Shown: piece by piece, positions 17,578-47,058 of the stretch | Layout of the letters: the number at the start of each line of letters is the position of its first letter | How positions within the stretch are numbered: the stretch's first letter is position 1 | Assembly: GCA_963805085.1 (NCBI GenBank) | Contig: CAWDTA010000004.1 | Coordinates: 224,001-288,000 of the forward strand | DNA from: an uncultured Veillonellaceae bacterium | GTDB lineage: Bacteria > Bacillota > Negativicutes > JARBTT01 | Reading direction: 5' to 3' | Length of the DNA stretch: 64,000 nt | Made by a program: the position numbers and the translations under genes | Notes under the pieces: generated by a model | What the model was told of the DNA's origin: nothing | The model's database searches: none | The model's input: only the letters and a program-made list of their open reading frames with translations

Positions 17578-17919
17578 TTATATGCCATCACCGTACAGCC
17601 CTTGTAAATCTTCAAAACGATGTTTTTCTAACTTTTCAATTTGTGCCACTTTATAATCCTTAATATTGATACTGATTTGCCCAAACTTAATATCTTTTAA
17701 ATAGCAATTTAACTTCTTACGTAAATTTTCATGAATCTGCTTGTTTGATAAAGTTCTTTTTTCTTTCTTTTTGCTGATGCTGGCAGCATCCAAACGAAAT
17801 TTTTCTGTTTTTTCAAATTGAATAAGACGTCCATCTTGAACTGTCAAAATTACCGTACCATAGCCTGTATCTATCACTTCATCTTCAATCAAAGTCCAAG
17901 CTTCTCCCGATATGATCAA
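17578..17919 (-). CDS. Tandem DUF2292 (YezD/OscA-like) protein with CysE-like C-terminal tail
   Basis: Two repeats GYGTVILTVQDGRLIQFEKTEKFRL and KFGQISINIKDYKVAQIEKLEKHRF; ends LYGDGI; TTG start after GGTGGTGA (alternative GTG 17940). Confidence 0.8.
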   Translation of the reverse strand: MIISGEAWTLIEDEVIDTGYGTVILTVQDGRLIQFEKTEKFRLDAASISKKKEKRTLSNKQIHENLRKKLNCYLKDIKFGQISINIKDYKVAQIEKLEKHRFEDLQGLYGDGI

Positions 17920-18046
17920 TGCAATCTCACCACCAAACACTTCGTTTTTAAATTACATAGAAAGTTCCCGTAAAATGTTCCTTTTTTACATTTATAGGTA
18001 TACTATCATATAAAGCCATTTTTTTCAATTGGATCTATCAATGATT

Positions 18047-18952: not shown

Positions 18953-19012
18953 AAAAAGGCAAAAGAGACAGAATTACACCTGTTATCTTTTGCCTTCAGT
19001 TATCTGATCAGC
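18953..19012 (-). promoter_or_regulatory. Leader attenuator copy 1 (21-nt hairpin plus overlapping terminator)
   Basis: GCTGATCAGATAACTGAAGGC then AAAAGATAACAG..CTGTCTCTTTTGCCTTTTT; promoter TTGACA(19067)-17-TAAATT. Confidence 0.8.
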
Positions 19013-19244
19013 TAAATATTGAATTTACTATTTCATCTAATTTACTAGTTTTTTATTGATTTGTCAATATAAAGATTACATTTCACCTTACTTCTTTATG
19101 AAAAATTCTATTCTATATTGTTTTGACTATATAGTAAAATACATTTGTAGTTAATCCAACAACACTTGCGGTTATATTAAAAGGCAATTGTACAAGCTCG
19201 GTGCTTTCATTAATATTGCTGACAATCATCCAATTTTAGAAATA

Positions 19245-19305
19245 ACAAAAGGCAAAAAATATAAGGTCATTTCTTATATCTTCTGCCTTCAGCTTTCCGA
19301 TCAGC
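19245..19305 (-). promoter_or_regulatory. Leader attenuator copy 2
   Basis: GCTGATCGGAAAGCTGAAGGC then AGAAGATATAAG..CTTATATTTTTTGCCTTTT. Confidence 0.75.
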
Positions 19306-19395: not shown

Positions 19396-19473
19396 TTATT
19401 TAGGTGCAATAGCAGTCACAAAAGTAAGCACCAATAATATTGCCATAATTCCATAATTTGTCTTTTGATTCAT
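19396..19473 (-). CDS. 25-aa hydrophobic peptide (small protein or gene remnant)
   Basis: AAGGAGG RBS, MNQKTNYGIMAILLVLTFVTAIAPK*, directly after attenuator copy 3. Confidence 0.5.
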   Translation of the reverse strand: MNQKTNYGIMAILLVLTFVTAIAPK

Positions 19474-19494: not shown

Positions 19495-19556
19495 TAAAAA
19501 GACAAAAGTAATAGATTCTAAAATCTATTGCCTTTGCCTTTAGATTTCTAATCAGC
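19495..19556 (-). promoter_or_regulatory. Leader attenuator copy 3
   Basis: GCTGATTAGAAATCTAAAGGC plus terminator; consensus promoter TTGACA(19611)-17-TATAAT. Confidence 0.8.
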
Positions 19557-19854
19557 AAACCGCACTGTTTATTGATTTTTATATTATAATCCATTTTCAT
19601 AATTTTGTCAAGTATTTTTATAATTCAAGTGTGTGAATGATATACGATAATGTCCTATTATACAGTTTTTGATTATGTCCCAATCCACATGATATACTGT
19701 AGCCTTATTCAGAAAATATAGAATGTTACAGTTTTTTATTTATCTATTGTTTTTTTCCTTTTTTGTGTTAATATTATTGATTATACAATTAACTATATTT
19801 GGAATAAATATTAGTTAATACGTCATTAACAATATTAATAAGGAGGATTTTCTT

Positions 19855-20708
19855 ATGCAAATTTTAAGCAAAAACTTCCTATATATTCATTTGGTCGTTT
19901 TATTCTTTGCATTTTCTAGTTTATTTGGTGAGCTAATAACGTTACCAGCTCTTGCCATAATATTGGGTAGAGTCTTTTTTTCTTCGGCATTCCTATTTAT
20001 ATTCTCTCAATATAATAAAGAAACATTACGGTTTTCCAAGCGGATTAATCATGCCTATCTTGCTTTAATGGGGATTATCCTAGTGATTCATTGGGCAACA
20101 TTCTTTCAATCAGTGCAGCTGTCTACAGTCGCCATTGGCCTGCTGACGTTTTCCATCTTTCCTTTACTCGTACCTTATATGGAAAACTTCTTTTTAAAGA
20201 AAAGCTCAAACTCTCTGATATTATCATGGCAAACATCATGTTCTGCGGTATTTTATTGATATTACCAAACTTTGAAATACCCAATGCCACCATCCAAGGA
20301 ATACTTTACGGTTCTATCGCTGGTTTTACTTATGCAAATTTATCCTTGATTAACCGTAAATGTGTAAAAGAGTATTGTAGCCTCGTGATCTCGCTCTATG
20401 AGCAGGCAGTGGCAACGACATTTCTACTACCATTTCTTTTTATTGAAACACCTAAATTTACAATAAATGATATTTTATTACTCATGATTTTAGGTACAAT
20501 TTTGACAGGTATTGCACATGCATTATTTATTCATGGCTGGAAAAGTATTTGCGCTAAAACATCAGGTATGGTCACTTATTTTGAACCCATTTACGGAATC
20601 ATCATTGCTACAATGACGATTCAAGCAATTCCTACTGTTAATGAGATGTTTGGTGCCGTTATCATACTAAGCACTGTACTCTATCATTCCTTTAATCAAA
20701 GAGCTTAA
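19855..20708 (+). pseudogene. EamA/DMT transporter, frameshifted
   Basis: Two overlapping ORFs form one DMT; one extra A in the run at 20183-20186 would restore YMEKLLFKEKLK. Confidence 0.8.
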
Positions 20709-21396: not shown

Positions 21397-22806
21397 TTAC
21401 CAAAGTCCAAGTACTTTCCACCATGCACCGCCAATACCTAACCAAATTACTACGTTAAGAGTAGTAAGAATGAAACCAAGTTTCCACCATTCACCTTGTG
21501 TTACATAGCCTGCACCGAATATGATCGGACCTGCAGCGCCACCGAAGTGTGTTAACGGAATCATAATGTTAGATAAAAATGCAAATGCTAAAGCTGCAAG
21601 AAGTGGTGGTGCGCCTGCGGCTACCGAAATTGCAAGGAATGCCGCGTACATTGCACTGATATGTGCTGTAACGCTTGCGAAGCCATAATGCGCATATACA
21701 TAGACAATGATTAATATAGAAAATGCAGCAATCCAAGATAAGCCTGCGGCTGCGATTATTACACCTGCTGATTTAGCAATCCAAGCGATAAAACCTGATT
21801 TTTCAAGAGCAGTTGCCAATGCAATCAGTGCCCCCATCCAGAACATTGTATCCCAAGCGCCTTTTTCTTGGAGAATGTCTTGCCATGTGAGTGCATTAAA
21901 AACAACCATAACACAGACAGCCATCATTGCTACAACAGTTGCATTTATATGTGTAATATCAGAAGTTGCCCAGAGAACCAATGCACCAACGAATACACAA
22001 GCAACAATTTTTTCAATGGTTGTCATCGGTCCCATGATTCCAAGCTCTTTTTCCGCCAAACCTTTTGCATCTGGCATCGCTTTGATTTCCGGTGGATACA
22101 GTTTGTAAAGAACATATGGCATAACTAGAAGCGAAATCACCCCTGGAACAAAAGCCGCAACAGCCCAAGAATTCCAAGTTAATTGCACACCGATTGTTTT
22201 TGCTGCAAGCTCTGCAGAAAGTGGATTACCAGCCATTGCAGTTAAGAACATTGCGCAAGTGATTGCATTTGCATGGTATTCAACCTGCATGATATAAGCA
22301 CCAAACTTACGAGCAGTAGGCCCAGGTTCAGAGCCTAATGCAGATGAAAGACTTTTTATAATCGGGAATATAATCCCACCGGCACGCGCTGCACTGGAAG
22401 GTGTTGCTGGAGAAATAACGAAATCACTCAAGGTGATTGCATAGCCAAGTGTTAAGGAAGATCTACCAATTAATTTAATAATAACGAAAGCAATTCTTCT
22501 ACCAAGACCGCTCTTGATAAAGCCACGAGCAAATAAAAAAGCACAAATGATAAGCCAAATCGTACTATTACCAAAGCCAGCAAGTGCTTCATCTAGCTTC
22601 AATGTATTAGAAAATGCCGAGAAGGTAACAGAAATTAATGCAATTGCTCCGATTGGCAATGGTTGTAAAATAAAGCCTAGAATTGTTGCAGCAAAGATTG
22701 CAAATAAATGCCACGCTGTTACTTTTAACCCTTCTGGCACGGGACAGAACCAAAGGATGATACCAAACGCAAGCACTATTGCTGCATTACGAGTGTTTTT
22801 ATTCAT
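21397..22806 (-). CDS. DASS-family di/tricarboxylate transporter (CitT/TtdT-like)
   Basis: AWHLFAIF, SGLGRRIA, TPSSAARAGG, MFLTAMAGNP, WWKLGF. Confidence 0.93.
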   Translation of the reverse strand: MNKNTRNAAIVLAFGIILWFCPVPEGLKVTAWHLFAIFAATILGFILQPLPIGAIALISVTFSAFSNTLKLDEALAGFGNSTIWLIICAFLFARGFIKSGLGRRIAFVIIKLIGRSSLTLGYAITLSDFVISPATPSSAARAGGIIFPIIKSLSSALGSEPGPTARKFGAYIMQVEYHANAITCAMFLTAMAGNPLSAELAAKTIGVQLTWNSWAVAAFVPGVISLLVMPYVLYKLYPPEIKAMPDAKGLAEKELGIMGPMTTIEKIVACVFVGALVLWATSDITHINATVVAMMAVCVMVVFNALTWQDILQEKGAWDTMFWMGALIALATALEKSGFIAWIAKSAGVIIAAAGLSWIAAFSILIIVYVYAHYGFASVTAHISAMYAAFLAISVAAGAPPLLAALAFAFLSNIMIPLTHFGGAAGPIIFGAGYVTQGEWWKLGFILTTLNVVIWLGIGGAWWKVLGLW

Positions 22807-22928
22807 ACTATTCGCACCTTTCATCTCTGACTACTGAAAGGTGTCAATATTATGCAATAAGCGATGGAGCGAACCCCACCGCCTATTGTAATATAACCTA
22901 ACAGTTGTCTTCCACTGTTTCTTCATTG

Positions 22929-42315: not shown

Positions 42316-42630
42316 TTAATAGGCATTGGCCTTTTGCTGATCAATGGTAATCACCGTTTCTTTTCCTTCAGGAGAAATGACGTGCCAATGCAAAAAACCA
42401 TTTTCTTTCTTCGTAAATAACAAACTACCCCGACCGCCAATATCAGCACCTAAATAATAATAAATGGCCTGATATGCACATTCTTTTACACAGGAAGTGC
42501 AGCCCCAGCAATCTTTGGGCTGCTGGATACAAGCTTTACCTTTATCATTTTGGGTTAATAGATTGCCAGGACACACCTGCTGACATTTTCCACACCCACG
42601 ACATTTTTTCTGATCAATTGTTATGCTCAT
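42316..42630 (-). CDS. aprB: Adenylylsulfate reductase beta subunit (ferredoxin)
   Basis: CRGCGKCQQVCP, DCWGCTSCVKEC; overlaps aprA. Confidence 0.85.
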   Translation of the reverse strand: MSITIDQKKCRGCGKCQQVCPGNLLTQNDKGKACIQQPKDCWGCTSCVKECAYQAIYYYLGADIGGRGSLLFTKKENGFLHWHVISPEGKETVITIDQQKANAY

Positions 42631-44305
42631 AAACCTCACCCTTTTTCACCAGATCACGCAAGATAATTTTTACTTGGCCTTCTTGCATCACTGAATTTAC
42701 AAATTTCAGCCAATGTTCATCATCTTTTTCTGGATAGTCGGCATTTTCTTGAAACGAATGCCACCTAGTTTCTTTTCTTGCTTCCAGGTGGTAAATTAGC
42801 ACTTTGCATACTTCTAGGCGATCAATTACTTCATAAATTTTTAACAACTCCATCATACTATCGGCTTTTAACGCTAAACTAAGTTTACGCAACTCATCAA
42901 TATGGATTTTTGCCTGCTGTAATTTTGCCGTGTTAAACATGTATCCTGAAGAAATTCCCCCAGCATAATCATCCATTATTTTTTGCATAGCCTCTTCGAT
43001 ATCTTCACTATAATAGATACTTGGTTTATCTCTCAAAAAGGATTCCACAGATTCTACTGCCAATTGGATTTGCTCAGCATCGACTTCACTAGCTACAAAC
43101 GGTTGGTTTAGATACTCCATCGCTGCCTGCCCAGCGATTTTTCCTTCAACAAAGCAACCAGTTACATACTTTTGCGGACTACCACCCGCTACATCACCAG
43201 CAGCATACAAACCTTGAATGGTAGTCGCTCTATTGGTATCCACCCAATACCCACTTCCAGTATGCCCGCCTACGATATAGGGCTCCGTTCCTTCGATTTC
43301 AACGTTTTCGTTAGCAGGGCCCACTCCATTCTCTAGCCAACGCAGCGCTTGGGCTGGCGCCATATTTAAATAGGCTTTATAGAGATCATCTTCCTGCTTT
43401 TCTGTAATGCCAGCGGTATTTAAATAACAGGGTCCAGCACCGCGCTGGTTTTCCTGCACCGTCGAATATAACCTAATCGAGGTTTTAGGCTTACCATATT
43501 TTCTCTCGTACAGTTCACCACAGCTATTGATTTGCTCTGCACCGATTCCCTGCGCAATCGTTCCCGTAGGCGCAATCGTATCTTTACACCGCAAAGCAAT
43601 GAACCGCATTTCAAAGGTTGTCATTTCTGCCCCAGCACGGATGCCCATTGCATACCCAGCACCAGTGTTAAACGGACTATACCACATTTTATGGCGTGAA
43701 AAGCCTGGATTATTGGGTCGATATAGACCAGAAGCTCCGCCGGTAGCACAGATCACAGCTTTTGCTAAGATGACATAAAAAATCGGCTGATCTAAAGAAA
43801 AACCGTAAGCGCCAACGACTCGCCCATCGCTCACAATATAATCGGTAATATTCACACGATTCAAAACGGTAACATGATCAGCCTTCTCTACAGCACTTGC
43901 CAATAATGGTTTGATATTTTCGCCATTGATTTTAATGTTGCGATTGCCGCGCGTTACATACTCACCCTGACTGTCTTTTTGAATCACCAGACCTAAATCT
44001 TCCATCGTCTTTGTCACCTGATTTAGCTCCGCTGCCATGCTAGCTACCAAGTCTTCTCTGATAATAGCTTCAGCATCACTCCTGACATAATCGACATAAT
44101 CTTCAGGTGTCTGACCTTGAACAATATAAGCATTTAATGCATTCACGCCCGCCGCTAAACAACCGCTTCGTTTGATATTGGCCTTTTCAACAATGAGCAC
44201 CTTCGTCGCTTTCTGCTCCGCCACCGTAAGAGCGGCAAAACATCCGGCTGTACCGCCACCGATAATTAAAATATCTGTTTCTAATTTCACCGTTTCTAAA
44301 TTCAT
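42614..44305 (-). CDS. aprA: Adenylylsulfate reductase alpha subunit (flavoprotein)
   Basis: GGGTAGC, EKANIKRSG, INGE, RKETRW; clostridial assimilatory-operon context. Confidence 0.9.
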   Translation of the reverse strand: MNLETVKLETDILIIGGGTAGCFAALTVAEQKATKVLIVEKANIKRSGCLAAGVNALNAYIVQGQTPEDYVDYVRSDAEAIIREDLVASMAAELNQVTKTMEDLGLVIQKDSQGEYVTRGNRNIKINGENIKPLLASAVEKADHVTVLNRVNITDYIVSDGRVVGAYGFSLDQPIFYVILAKAVICATGGASGLYRPNNPGFSRHKMWYSPFNTGAGYAMGIRAGAEMTTFEMRFIALRCKDTIAPTGTIAQGIGAEQINSCGELYERKYGKPKTSIRLYSTVQENQRGAGPCYLNTAGITEKQEDDLYKAYLNMAPAQALRWLENGVGPANENVEIEGTEPYIVGGHTGSGYWVDTNRATTIQGLYAAGDVAGGSPQKYVTGCFVEGKIAGQAAMEYLNQPFVASEVDAEQIQLAVESVESFLRDKPSIYYSEDIEEAMQKIMDDYAGGISSGYMFNTAKLQQAKIHIDELRKLSLALKADSMMELLKIYEVIDRLEVCKVLIYHLEARKETRWHSFQENADYPEKDDEHWLKFVNSVMQEGQVKIILRDLVKKGEVYEHNN

Positions 44306-44339
44306 CTATCTAATTCCTTTCTTCCAGCATTGAACTACC

Positions 44340-45113
44340 TCACGCGCGATCTAGTCCCCAACGTTGTCGAATATTTTGTTCTATTTGCCCAAAAATTAAC
44401 TTATCTACCACCACGCCCAATACGATAATCACAATCATCACTGCCATAACCTGACTGATATCGGCTAAATCGCGACCGACCATTAAGACTTGCCCGAGGC
44501 CTTTTGTCGCCGACATCATTTCACCAGCCATAAGAGCCCGCCAAGCAAAAGACCAGCCTTGTTTTAAACCCGATACAATCGCAGGCAAACTCGCTGGAAG
44601 AATTACATTCCAATAAATTTTAAAACCACTAGCGCCCATCGTCCTTGCCGCTCTAATATAAAGTGGATTGATATTTTTTATTCCAGCTTCGAGGGCAATG
44701 GCTACAGCAAACGTCGAGCCAATGGCAATTACAAACATAATGGCACTTTCATTTAGTCCATACCACAAAATCGCAAAAGGGAGCCAGCAAATACTAGGTA
44801 ATGTTTGCAAGCCTAAAATCAAAGGACTGGCATTTTCATCCAACCACTTAAATTTGACGATAATAAGTCCAATGATCAAGCCCAATATCACCGATACGAA
44901 ATATCCCAAAATGATTCGCTTTGCACTTGACAATATGGCAATAACAAGCGTTTGATCAGCAAATAAACTATATAAAGTTTTAAAGACATCAATGGGGGAA
45001 GGAAAAACATACGCCTTCCAAAGCCTTAAATAATCTACGCCAAGTTCATACGCCACTTCCCAAATTATCATTAATACTAGGTAAAACAGGATTTTTTTGA
45101 ATATTCCAGTCAT
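44340..45113 (-). CDS. NitT/TauT/SsuC-type ABC permease
   Basis: LQTLPSICWLP, EAA-like RAARTMGAS, GWSFAWRALMAGE. Confidence 0.92.
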   Translation of the reverse strand: MTGIFKKILFYLVLMIIWEVAYELGVDYLRLWKAYVFPSPIDVFKTLYSLFADQTLVIAILSSAKRIILGYFVSVILGLIIGLIIVKFKWLDENASPLILGLQTLPSICWLPFAILWYGLNESAIMFVIAIGSTFAVAIALEAGIKNINPLYIRAARTMGASGFKIYWNVILPASLPAIVSGLKQGWSFAWRALMAGEMMSATKGLGQVLMVGRDLADISQVMAVMIVIIVLGVVVDKLIFGQIEQNIRQRWGLDRA

Positions 45114-45885
45114 TATCGTATTCAGCTTTTGCAACCTTCTCAACCTCCGTCTTCAATTCTTGCATAATATTATTCATTAAATAAGCCAAATCAACATTAC
45201 CTGGTTGACGTGGTCTTGCGACTTGAATCTGAAATTCTTTTTTGATTCCACCAGGATTCGCTGACATAACCACAACACGATCTGCTAATATGGTTGCTTC
45301 TTCTACATTATGGGTAACAAATAAAATCGTTTTTTTCGTTTCTAGCCAAATCTGCTGCAATTCAATTTGTAGTAGCATCTTGGTCTGACTATCTAGTGCG
45401 GCAAATGGTTCATCCATAAGAAGCACTTCTGAATCAAAGGTTAGCGCTCGCGCGAGTGCTACGCGCTGGCGCATCCCTCCTGATAATTCATGAATAAAGG
45501 CATGTTGGAACTTCGTTAAATGCACCATTTTTAAGTATTTCAACGCGCGCTCACGCCGCTGTGCTGGCGCTACCCCCGCCATTTTCATACCAAATTCTAC
45601 ATTGTCGATCACATTGAGCCAAGGAAACAATGCTGCTTCTTGAAACATCACGACTCTGTCCGGTCCAGGCCCCGTTACTTGCTTGCCATTCAGAGTCACC
45701 CTACCGGACGTCGCTTCTTCAAGCCCAGCGATGATATTAAGCAACGTAGATTTACCACAACCAGACGGGCCTAGGATACAAATAAATTCGCCCGGCTTAA
45801 ATTCAATATTTACCTTTGATAATGTTTCGGTATCACTGTGCTTGGTGATAAACCGCTTACTAACATCTTCAACTTTAATACTCAT
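45046..45885 (-). CDS. NitT/TauT/SsuB-type ABC ATPase
   Basis: GPSGCGKST, LSGGMRQR, LLMDEPF. Confidence 0.95.
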   Translation of the reverse strand: MSIKVEDVSKRFITKHSDTETLSKVNIEFKPGEFICILGPSGCGKSTLLNIIAGLEEATSGRVTLNGKQVTGPGPDRVVMFQEAALFPWLNVIDNVEFGMKMAGVAPAQRRERALKYLKMVHLTKFQHAFIHELSGGMRQRVALARALTFDSEVLLMDEPFAALDSQTKMLLQIELQQIWLETKKTILFVTHNVEEATILADRVVVMSANPGGIKKEFQIQVARPRQPGNVDLAYLMNNIMQELKTEVEKVAKAEYDNDWNIQKNPVLPSINDNLGSGV

Positions 45886-45898
45886 CTTCAACTCCACC

Positions 45899-46933
45899 TT
45901 ACTCTATTTCTGGCAAGCCCTTATCTTTTAACACTTTATTTAAGATTTTTAGATTAAACAAAGTTTTTGTATCAGGTTTTTCTTTTAAGAAACCTGCTTT
46001 TTGTGATAAATCGACAAAATCAAGCACTGCTTCTTTTTCTGGGTCATTTGTTACGGTTACGCGAGCAAAAGCTGATGTCAATACATCTTCTGCCAATGGC
46101 TTCCCCGTAAGCTCCTTAATTTGTGCATTGATAATGCTACTAGCCTCGTTTTGATTTTTTTGGATATACGCAGTTAACTCCACATGTTTCTTTAAAAATT
46201 TCTCTACTAAATCTGGATGTTCTTCAATGAATTTTGTTCTAGCAACGACTACTGCGGTACTATATTTGCCTTCGCGCCAAACTTTATCATAATCTAATAC
46301 CACTTTTGCATTAACTTCTTTTATCAATCTTGCTCCCCAAGGTTCTGGTACCAAAGCTGCATCTATTTCACCTTTATCTAAGAGTGTCTTAATATCTGGG
46401 TTATTCGCTTGCACAATCTCTACTGTACCGCCCTTAGTCGTATCCTTTAACCCTTGCGCTGATAAAAGATAACGCAAGGATAAATCTTGTGTATTACCAA
46501 ATTGCGGTATGGCAATTTTCTTCCCACTTAATTCTGCTAAATTGTTGATTGTCACATCTTTTCGCGAAACTAAGATTGCCCCAGCATCGGTAGCGCCAGC
46601 AATAATCTGAATATCACCCTTTGATTTTGCATAACCACTAATCGCTGGTCCTGGTCCAATATATCCAATATCAACTTCACCAGCAAACAATGCTTCAATT
46701 TCGGATGGCCCCGCATTAAAAGCTTCCCATTCTACAGGATTACTTTCGCCTAGTGCTTGTTGGAATTCTCCTTTTGCTTTGCCGACCAAAGCTTGCGAAT
46801 GCGTAATATTCGGGAAAAATCCAATACGGACTTTGGTATTATCACTACTGGCTTTTTCAGTGCCACAACCGGCTAACACCGCTCCTAACGTAGTAAAGAT
46901 AAATAATATCACTGCCATTTTTTTTATATTCAT
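45899..46933 (-). CDS. Sulfonate/sulfate ABC substrate-binding lipoprotein (SsuA-like)
   Basis: LAGC lipobox, GFFPNITHSQA, FNAGP, PQFGNTQD, PEPW. Confidence 0.9.
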   Translation of the reverse strand: MNIKKMAVILFIFTTLGAVLAGCGTEKASSDNTKVRIGFFPNITHSQALVGKAKGEFQQALGESNPVEWEAFNAGPSEIEALFAGEVDIGYIGPGPAISGYAKSKGDIQIIAGATDAGAILVSRKDVTINNLAELSGKKIAIPQFGNTQDLSLRYLLSAQGLKDTTKGGTVEIVQANNPDIKTLLDKGEIDAALVPEPWGARLIKEVNAKVVLDYDKVWREGKYSTAVVVARTKFIEEHPDLVEKFLKKHVELTAYIQKNQNEASSIINAQIKELTGKPLAEDVLTSAFARVTVTNDPEKEAVLDFVDLSQKAGFLKEKPDTKTLFNLKILNKVLKDKGLPEIE

Positions 46934-46983
46934 GTAAGCCATCTCCTTTATCATTTCCCTCATTTCAGCCTTTTCGGCAATAG

Positions 46984-47058
46984 AAAAAGACCAAGAAGCA
47001 CTCTTCTTTAGAAATTTTCTAAGAAAAGTACTTCTTGGCCTTCGGTTTTCCGATCAGC
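46984..47058 (-). promoter_or_regulatory. Leader attenuator copy 4, heading the sulfate-assimilation operon
   Basis: GCTGATCGGAAAACCGAAGGC then CAAGAAGTAC..GTGCTTCTTGGTCTTTTT; promoter TTGACA(47105)-17-TATCAT. Confidence 0.85.

Follow-up and report, generated by a model that had tools for sequence, protein, structure and literature searches.

The window analyzed here, a 64,000-nucleotide stretch of contig CAWDTA010000004.1 (positions 224,001 to 288,000; assembly GCA_963805085.1) from an uncultured Veillonellaceae bacterium, carries on its minus strand a small gene of the DUF2292/YezD family behind a sulfite-reductase-like gene, and the region upstream of both contains three copies of a short RNA element (Table 1). 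The DUF2292 protein consists of two repeats followed by a tail that resembles the CysK-docking end of E. coli CysE. The longest open reading frame (ORF) of the gene is without an internal Met; its true start is probably the TTG at 17919, which is preceded by GGTGGTGAG and yields a protein of 113 residues, equal in length to the relatives P0003, P0004 and P0005. Pfam placed the protein in DUF2292 (PF10055), with 71.4 bits over two stretches against a cut-off of 22, and detected no other domain in it, toxin domains included. The NCBIfam equivalog model for OscA (NF033785) reached 45.2 bits against a cut-off of 85 and aligned with the C-terminal repeat only (profile positions 19-53 of 60); by this model the protein is not an OscA equivalog. 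The AsrC model likewise remained under its cut-off on the 287-residue sulfite-reductase-like protein (165.7 bits; cut-off 324).

Table 1 Features of the DUF2292 locus and of the RNA element copies in the genome
Feature	Position	Strand	Notes
Tandem DUF2292/YezD gene	17578..17940	-	longest ORF 120 aa from GTG at 17940
C-terminal tail EDLQGLYGDGI	17581..17613	-	residues 103-113 of the 113-aa form; predicted flexible
C-terminal DUF2292 repeat and preceding basic helix	17614..17748	-	isoelectric point (pI) 10.1 (residues 46-102); counterpart of the tailed 'C-type' subunit in split forms
N-terminal DUF2292 repeat	17800..17907	-	acidic, pI 4.2 (residues 1-45); counterpart of the tail-less 'N-type' subunit in split forms
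Small sulfite-reductase-like gene, 287 aa	18047..18910	-	directly upstream of DUF2292 gene; NIR_SIR and two 4Fe-4S motifs
Intrinsic terminator, leader C	18957..18995	-	base of 5' arm is the element AGGC; minimum free energy (MFE) -20.5 kcal/mol, z -3.4
RNA element copy C, GCUGA-UCAG-AUAA-CUGA-AGGCA	18991..19012	-	leader of sulfite reductase and DUF2292 genes
Second promoter, 10/12	19039-19067	-	ahead of leader C
RNA element copy B	19284..19305	-	terminator 19250-19288; MFE -25.5, z -7.0
RNA element copy A	19535..19556	-	terminator 19498-19541
Sigma-70-type consensus promoter, 12/12	19583..19611	-	ahead of leader A
RNA element copy D	47037..47058	-	terminator 46988-47041; MFE -37, z -7.4
Fifth RNA element copy	G000:C2:1174532	+	before URO-D-like gene and amino-acid ABC transporter

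A genome search recovered both repeats and identified this as the sole DUF2292 gene of the genome. A word-based homologue search returned three matches of near-equal length and none shorter, the nearest named relative being P0003, a YezD family protein of Anaerosinus/Massilibacillus massiliensis with 113 residues and 84% identity. When 1.84 billion cluster representatives were searched exhaustively with HMMER, 85 matched at E ≤ 0.001.

The first-pass annotation had singled out the ending DLQGLYGDGI and likened it to the FEYGDGI end of E. coli CysE. Both endings can be read directly in the DNA: the ORF closes with ...EKHRFEDLQGLYGDGI, DLQGLYGDGI being encoded by 17581-17610 and followed by a TAA stop at 17578-17580, and CysE of E. 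coli K-12 (NC_000913) ends ...NHTFEYGDGI, with the same last five residues. The free C-terminal Ile that characterizes CysK docking clients of the CysE, CymR and CdiA-CT type is present, as ...YGDGI and a stop. Such a G.GI ending is found in 1 of the 8206 ATG-started ORFs of at least 50 residues in this genome.

Conservation of the ending in orthologs, on which the first-pass annotation had made its proposal depend, is extensive. Among the 85 representatives, 69 end in G[DE]GI (45 GDGI and 24 GEGI), two in GAGI and 14 in neither; the 14 comprise three giant proteins, five tail-less or cut single repeats, and others ending in GDGL, GEVV or otherwise. Of the 69 G[DE]GI tails, 62 have Gly at position -7, and at position -5 there are 27 with Tyr, 22 with Asp and nine with Phe; the conserved motif is G-hydrophobic-[Y/D/F]-G-[D/E]-G-I-COOH. 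We also examined 41 genomes from the class of the window organism, not chosen by tail, of which 29 carry DUF2292 (best locus per genome, with a second locus for G222). G[DE]GI is found in 26 of these 29, as fused two-repeat proteins in 20 and as split forms in six. Elsewhere in the phylum, outside this class, the two tandem forms checked (G055 and G088) both end in GDGI or GEGI, and four single-repeat forms are without the tail, as is the single-repeat YezD of Bacillaceae, Lachnospiraceae, Ruminococcus, and Planctomycetota and Kuenenia metagenome-assembled genomes (MAGs). By these comparisons the tail is the mark of a subfamily and not of DUF2292 as a whole, and it appears to be the best conserved part of the tailed family. 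Synonymous variation of the Gly, Ile and stop codons, seen over 26 distinct loci, indicates selection on the peptide and not on overlapping DNA or RNA; this variation and the differing stop codons rule out an overlapping RNA or terminator signal as the source of the conservation.

A structure was predicted with AlphaFold2 from a 65-sequence alignment, A1, made up of 63 of the 85 representatives, P0003 and the window protein. Because tail-less representatives were excluded from A1, its 'invariant' tail columns overstate conservation, of which the counts given above for the 85 representatives and the class sample are the fair measure. The model shows two helix and beta-hairpin repeats, with a predicted local-distance score (pLDDT) of 84 and a predicted template-modelling score (pTM) of 0.72. 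The last two 10-residue blocks have pLDDT values of 62 and 53, against 87-94 in the repeats, suggesting a flexible, exposed tail, and the model contains no intramolecular docking of the tail. The two-repeat protein is a pseudo-dimer, and some relatives make two separate subunits with the tail on one only. These split forms are encoded by adjacent genes, the first tail-less (...EKIRL-x) and the second ending in G[DE]GI (loci L041, L044, L045 and L048; genomes G202, G214, G222, G211, G209 and G228, at L130-L133, L136, L138 and L158), an arrangement that suggests a heterodimer with one tail per unit. Several DUF2292-like stretches were also seen within the giant proteins P0017 (3464 aa), P0048 (1569 aa) and P0070 (2974 aa).

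As the first-pass annotation had stated, cysK lies outside the window. The genome contains a true CysK at G000:C2:242706-243608 (310 aa from ATG), which scored 463.9 bits with TIGR01139 against a cut-off of 350.95. The complex was predicted from two CysK copies (26-row alignment A3), two molecules of pyridoxal phosphate (PLP) and the 113-residue protein (A1). The interface score ipSAE was 0.72, 0.77 and 0.77, against 0.00 in all three controls, with a contact agreement between runs of at least 79% and a partner pLDDT of at least 76. Of 80 solved complexes, 58 attain the mark applied to this score, as do 2 of 110 mismatched pairs; these rates are only approximate for a prediction made, as here, with supplied alignments and a riding ligand. 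In the prediction, contact with CysK is confined to residues 102-113 of the DUF2292 protein, which touch positions 74-78 (the TSGNT loop), 124-126, 129, 147-148 (Q, F), 181-182 and 224-230, with Ile113 beside 74-78, 147-148, 181-182 and 224-228. In a study of S. aureus CysK (10.1101/2024.09.19.614015), CymR and CysE peptides are described as bonding T73, N76, T77 and Q145 through the carboxylate of their terminal Ile and as lining M124, I128 and F146. The predicted tail contacts are these peptide-holding positions, shifted by one or two, and the terminal Ile is predicted to sit in the substrate-carboxylate pocket of CysK. The structure prediction that the first-pass annotation had proposed as a check thus places the tail in the active site. 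Because CysK-peptide complexes have been solved, the score may reflect only likeness to known docking peptides; the pass is read here as such a likeness of the tail, not as proof of binding.

The CysE encoded in this genome (L007 1252-1998 (-), equivalent to G000:C4:125563-126045) has a long charged C-terminal extension and ends in ...KSL, not in Ile. Among CysE of 29 class relatives, the last residue is Ile in four, Leu in seven, Val in five and another residue in 13, the ending often being K-S-[LVI]. The only clear Rrf2-family gene of the genome (L003 2653-3099 (+), on G000:C2) is divergent from the adjacent cysK, and its CymR-like product ends in ...KDNLMYFI, resembling the ...GYMFYI docking tail of S. 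aureus CymR. CysK in this organism may serve two regulators, one acting on DNA and the other on RNA. Genes of NifH-like and radical-SAM/NifB-like type are repeatedly found in the vicinity of cysK and DUF2292 (L003 354-1229 (-), adjoining cysK, and L029, L038 and L039). These neighbors may form part of a nitrogenase-like sulfur-acquisition system.

The RNA element consists of CUGA, a covarying 4-bp hairpin with an A-rich loop of 4-7 nt, and AGG(C), which forms the base of an intrinsic terminator. It was first seen upstream of DUF2292, as three GCUGA-N4-N4-N4-AGGCA repeats with a terminator after each. A further copy, D, leads the operon 46963..42614 (-), which encodes an NMT1-type ATP-binding cassette (ABC) transporter and an AprA-like flavoprotein. 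Matching the flanks alone gave 22 hits in the genome, of which just five have all four stem pairs, and all five are accompanied by a terminator. In each of the four window copies, the 4-bp hairpin abuts a terminator whose first pairs are the conserved AGG(C) (z -3.4 to -7.4). The overlap of a cis RNA site with an intrinsic terminator, as expected of the attenuation class, is therefore found in all four window copies. No Rfam 15 family matched the leaders when 12 kb was searched at E ≤ 0.1; at E ≤ 10, a search of 751 bases brought up nothing but junk. The repeated leader could in principle be the DNA operator of a repressor, an explanation ruled out by the stem covariation, the strand-specific matches and the fusion to terminators. 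The cysteine T-box is a different and much larger element; cysteine T-boxes are described for Clostridium perfringens. Downstream of leader A lies an ORF of 25 codons with a strong ribosome-binding site (19396-19473 (-); MNQKTNYGIMAILLVLTFVTAIAPK), which may encode a small membrane peptide; no convincing gene was seen between leader B and leader C.

The element is found in DUF2292 loci of many genera, with stems including UCAG/CUGA, CCGG/CCGG, UCGG/CCGA, UUAG/CUAA, CUGG/CCAG and UUGC/GCAA. We scanned one genome per species, giving 80 DUF2292 loci, 30 with a tailed gene and four with a split pair, and fetched 8 kb. At the 80 loci, the DUF2292 strand has 362 flank-only matches, 52 of them with a fully paired stem; of the 192 on the opposite strand, four have one. 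At 21 loci, a flank-only match falls between 12 nt before and 150 nt after the DUF2292 stop codon, fully paired in 16 and with three of four pairs in three; in four loci, the stop codon TGA itself forms part of CUGA. In a 44-sequence alignment whose members were chosen for pairing, the four stem pairs change on both sides in 11, 7, 19 and 4 sequences, respectively.

Co-occurrence was assessed in the class sample with a covariance model, R1, at E ≤ 0.001. Matches were obtained in 26 of the 29 genomes with DUF2292 and in none of the 12 without it, with up to 33 per genome, although R1 derives from DUF2292 loci and gives only rough E-values, and related genomes do not count as independent. The match nearest to DUF2292 usually lies 90-400 nt downstream on the same strand. 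A candidate regulator gene that is both linked to and co-occurring with its RNA site, the second property expected of attenuation systems, is thus what the 21 of 80 loci and the class sample display. Of 201 genomes sampled across the phylum, 31 have DUF2292, and at least nine of these show the element pattern 8-170 nt after the gene; an IUPAC pattern gave at least 72 matches in the 31 genomes, compared with at least 15 for a reversed control, and is noisy. Behind 40 distinct element copies, the first gene encodes an ABC ATPase in eight cases (four with a NIL domain), a radical SAM protein in five, CysK, DUF2325 and PP-loop proteins in three each, and NlpA, TauE, a sulfate-type substrate-binding protein and DUF2292 in two each, with single cases of a Cys/Met PLP enzyme, a NifH-like protein, Rrf2 and sulfite reductase. 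Judged by these assignments, the genes behind the element are sulfur genes.

The neighborhood of DUF2292 supports the link to CysK independently and in several genera. On the same strand within 8 kb, cysK is found in 15 of 30 tailed loci and two of four split loci, an adjacency of 17 in 34 compared with about 1% expected for a random gene by rough estimate. It starts 122-243 nt downstream of the tailed gene in ten loci, nine from Pelosinus and one from a Veillonellaceae MAG, and lies at a distance of 0.8-1.3 kb in Propionispira, Propionispora and another Veillonellaceae MAG. In Ruminococcus, an Alistipes-labelled MAG and a Lachnospiraceae MAG, five DUF2292 genes without a tail begin 34-40 nt downstream of cysK. 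Other recurrent neighbors are Cys/Met PLP enzymes (14 of 27 loci), MetQ/MetN-type ABC systems with MetQ-type lipoproteins, a PP-loop ATPase and a small sulfite reductase. One contig of Pelosinus baikalensis (L021 and L023) holds two pairs of tailed DUF2292 and cysK, about 12 kb apart on opposite strands. Docking of the DUF2292 protein to CysK through its tail, the central suggestion of the first-pass annotation, accordingly has in its favor a conserved tail, a predicted pose and adjacent cysK genes in several genera.

We consider it somewhat probable, by analogy with known attenuation systems, that the DUF2292 protein is an RNA-binding attenuation factor for the leader element, gated by CysK through the tail; the inferred parts of this proposal are that the protein binds RNA, how O-acetylserine acts and which way control runs. 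The protein is taken as the factor that binds the element because of the layout (regulator gene, then site and terminator, then structural genes), the further sites across the regulon and the strict co-occurrence. The term 'putative antiterminator' used in the first-pass annotation gains support from an element that overlaps terminators and both adjoins and co-occurs with DUF2292, while the binding of RNA itself is argued by analogy. In the proposed mechanism, binding of the DUF2292 protein to the element would keep the terminator base AGG(C) from pairing. With AGG(C) sequestered, the terminator would lose the closing pairs next to the U-tract, and binding should therefore give read-through into genes for sulfur acquisition, among them those for sulfite reductase, CysK, and the ABC transporters of sulfonate, methionine and cystine. 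The protein would use its flexible tail, G-L-Y-G-D-G-I-COOH, to dock in the CysK active site, as CysE and CymR do with theirs. With ample sulfide and little O-acetylserine, the free CysK site would hold the tail, keeping the protein off the RNA and the genes off; when sulfide is short, O-acetylserine would fill the site, release the protein and turn the genes on. Since the tail begins about 10 residues after the last strand of the basic repeat, docking would place the 70-kDa CysK dimer against that face. The sign of control, with high O-acetylserine turning the genes on, is assigned because the opposite would activate sulfur genes under plenty. Tail-less relatives would sense differently, or only through their own expression.

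Several known systems share parts of this arrangement. In the hutP, pyrR and bglG loci, a regulator gene is followed by an RNA site with a terminator and then by the structural genes. HutP, PyrR, BglG/SacY and TRAP resemble the present case in having a regulator gene upstream of a terminator-overlapping RNA site that precedes structural genes, and in having many sites per genome; they differ in that DUF2292 has no likeness to them in sequence or fold and that the element lies outside the families of Rfam 15. The CdiA-CT toxin of uropathogenic E. coli 536, which needs CysK, is another unrelated protein that mimics the CysE tail, its ending being GYGI. Unlike the DUF2292 protein, which has no toxin domain, it is a secreted tRNase toxin activated by CysK and not a regulator.

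The tail is like that of CysE in the CysE-CysK complex, with the YGDGI ending of E. coli CysE and an Ile carboxylate predicted in the same pocket, whereas the carrier here is a 113-residue DUF2292 protein without an acetyltransferase domain. GDGI of CysE is reported as conserved in three species, its terminal Ile as essential and O-acetylserine as dissociating the complexes of both CysE and CymR with CysK, and CysK partners are said usually to carry a conserved C-terminal Ile. The first-pass annotation had further held that CymR uses the same docking, which the CymR study bears out: the S. aureus CymR decapeptide EDLDGYMFYI binds CysK with a dissociation constant (KD) of 25 nM (10.1101/2024.09.19.614015). 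The CymR-CysK pair of Bacillus and Staphylococcus is like the system proposed here in that a regulator docks a C-terminal Ile tail and the enzyme acts as sensor. It is unlike it in that CymR is an Rrf2 DNA-binding repressor that CysK is described as helping onto DNA, whereas the factor proposed here would act on RNA, from which CysK would keep it away. OscA of Pseudomonas belongs to the same Pfam family and differs in having a single domain, with the window protein under the OscA cut-off; PMC2996968, citing Viti et al. 2009, describes it as a small protein whose function is unknown and which is required for chromate resistance, its gene being co-transcribed with the sulfate-binding protein gene sbp and induced both when sulfur is lacking and under chromate stress. 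A literature search, with subscription journals largely outside its reach, returned no paper on a mechanism for the DUF2292 family, on its binding to CysK or RNA, or on the CUGA-hairpin-AGG element.

Other roles for the protein and the element have to be weighed against this proposal. The tail may dock in CysK and yet serve metabolism, making DUF2292 a small CysE-mimicking inhibitor or modulator of CysK under sulfur stress that binds no RNA, with the element acting as an independent riboswitch or answering to some other factor. In its favor, the predicted pose occludes the active site in the manner of the inhibitory CysE and CymR peptides; no RNA-binding fold was recognized; and since the resident CysE ends in ...KSL, with Ile ends in only 4 of 29 CysE of the class, CysK may lack its usual partner. 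We regard this role as unlikely, as it leaves unexplained the element just after DUF2292 in 21 of 80 loci, the co-occurrence in 26 of 29 genomes against 0 of 12, and the linkage kept in tail-less relatives. The element could also be a metabolite riboswitch, for example for a sulfur compound, a reading that would weigh against an RNA-binding factor; DUF2292 would then be a regulon member that carries or chaperones a sulfur intermediate, tethered to CysK by its tail for hand-over. This fits a small, structured element that stands before many sulfur genes with up to 33 model matches per genome, that directly precedes the DUF2292 gene in L018 and L029, and whose DUF2292 gene in the window comes after sulfite reductase. 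However, neither Cys nor His is conserved in the family alignment, a tail lodged in the active site obstructs catalysis instead of feeding it, and a variable loop of 4-7 nt on a 4-bp stem leaves little for a ligand pocket; nor does a riboswitch need a particular upstream gene or strict co-occurrence with it. Such a combination seems quite improbable to us.

A different division is that DUF2292 is an RNA-binding regulator whose tail serves another partner, turnover or self-association, its likeness to CysE being convergent or coincidental. Docking does rest on one prediction, possibly a memory of solved complexes, and half of the tailed loci are without a linked cysK. Against this, the five terminal residues are identical to those of E. 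coli CysE, Gly at -7, -4 and -2 with a terminal Ile fits the known requirement, cysK is adjacent in half of the 34 loci with a tail, far above the estimated expectation, and AlphaFold2 shows no docking of the tail within the protein; we hold this division to be decidedly improbable. That the ending is a functionless chance feature of an ordinary small protein has nothing behind it except the shortness of the motif, and is already contradicted by the counts (69 of 85 representatives, 26 of 29 genomes, synonymous codons and 1 G.GI ending in 8206 ORFs), so that we give it next to no credence.

Other observations weigh against the proposed CysK-gated attenuation factor itself. The basic C-terminal half (pI 10.1) counts for RNA binding, while the N-terminal repeat is acidic. 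Foldseek found no match in the PDB at E ≤ 0.001 (best E 0.13), thus no likeness to an RNA-binding fold, and the PDB sequence search yielded chance-level hits only, to staphylococcal superantigen-like proteins over a low-complexity stretch (best E 0.0033). The ESM Atlas returned DUF2292 clusters only, and Pfam, Foldseek against the PDB and the PDB sequence search gave no homology in sequence or fold to the known antiterminator families CAT/PRD, ANTAR, HutP, TRAP and PyrR. On the side of CysK, any protein with such a tail might pass the complex prediction, the CymR-like ...MYFI protein would compete for the same site, cysK lies on another contig in this genome, and it is absent within 8 kb from 15 of 30 tailed loci. 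Three genomes of the class sample depart from the tail, with a tail-less single repeat in G233, GEGL in G204 and SEGI in G223, and G076 has a tailed DUF2292 yet no match to the covariance model, whose derivation from DUF2292 loci is itself a weakness. Lastly, the tail-less single-domain YezD of Bacillaceae, Lachnospiraceae, Ruminococcus and others is equally linked to the element; the tail is therefore unnecessary for the core job of the family.

Elsewhere in the window, positions 22110-22293 (+) gave a sub-threshold Rfam match to the Yersinia small RNA Ysr283 (36.9 bits against a gathering score of 58; E 2.3e-7), which lies antisense inside a gene of the Na/sulfate symporter family (21397-22824 (-)). 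Two overlapping ORFs for membrane proteins in different frames (19855-20259 and 20091-20708, (+)) are possibly one frameshifted transporter gene.

DUF2292/OscA/YezD has been tied to sulfur starvation since 2009 without a mechanism, and the CysK-gated attenuation proposed here offers a concrete and testable one. Extended to the whole family, it would make DUF2292/YezD, including OscA, a new family of RNA-binding attenuation factors that control sulfur regulons through an element of about 20 nt with up to about 30 sites per genome; a CysE-mimicking tail would have been acquired in Negativicutes and some other Bacillota, with CysK as the sensor of O-acetylserine and sulfide at the RNA level, in parallel to its role with CymR. 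We advance this extension tentatively, as a possibility that we are not yet inclined to favor. By itself, the docking would extend a known mechanism to one more client; combined with the RNA element, it would amount to a novel form of enzyme-gated attenuation. If the proposal is true, the protein would be the fourth kind of client at the CysK docking site, after CysE, CymR and CdiA-CT, and CysK the first metabolic 'trigger enzyme' to gate an RNA-binding factor through its active site. As a widespread leader of sulfur genes in Bacillota that has so far gone undescribed, the RNA element would improve the prediction of cysteine and methionine regulons in anaerobes such as Pelosinus, Selenomonas, Ruminococcus and Lachnospiraceae, and the proposed mechanism, if true, would explain the tandem attenuators before sulfite reductase and transporter operons.

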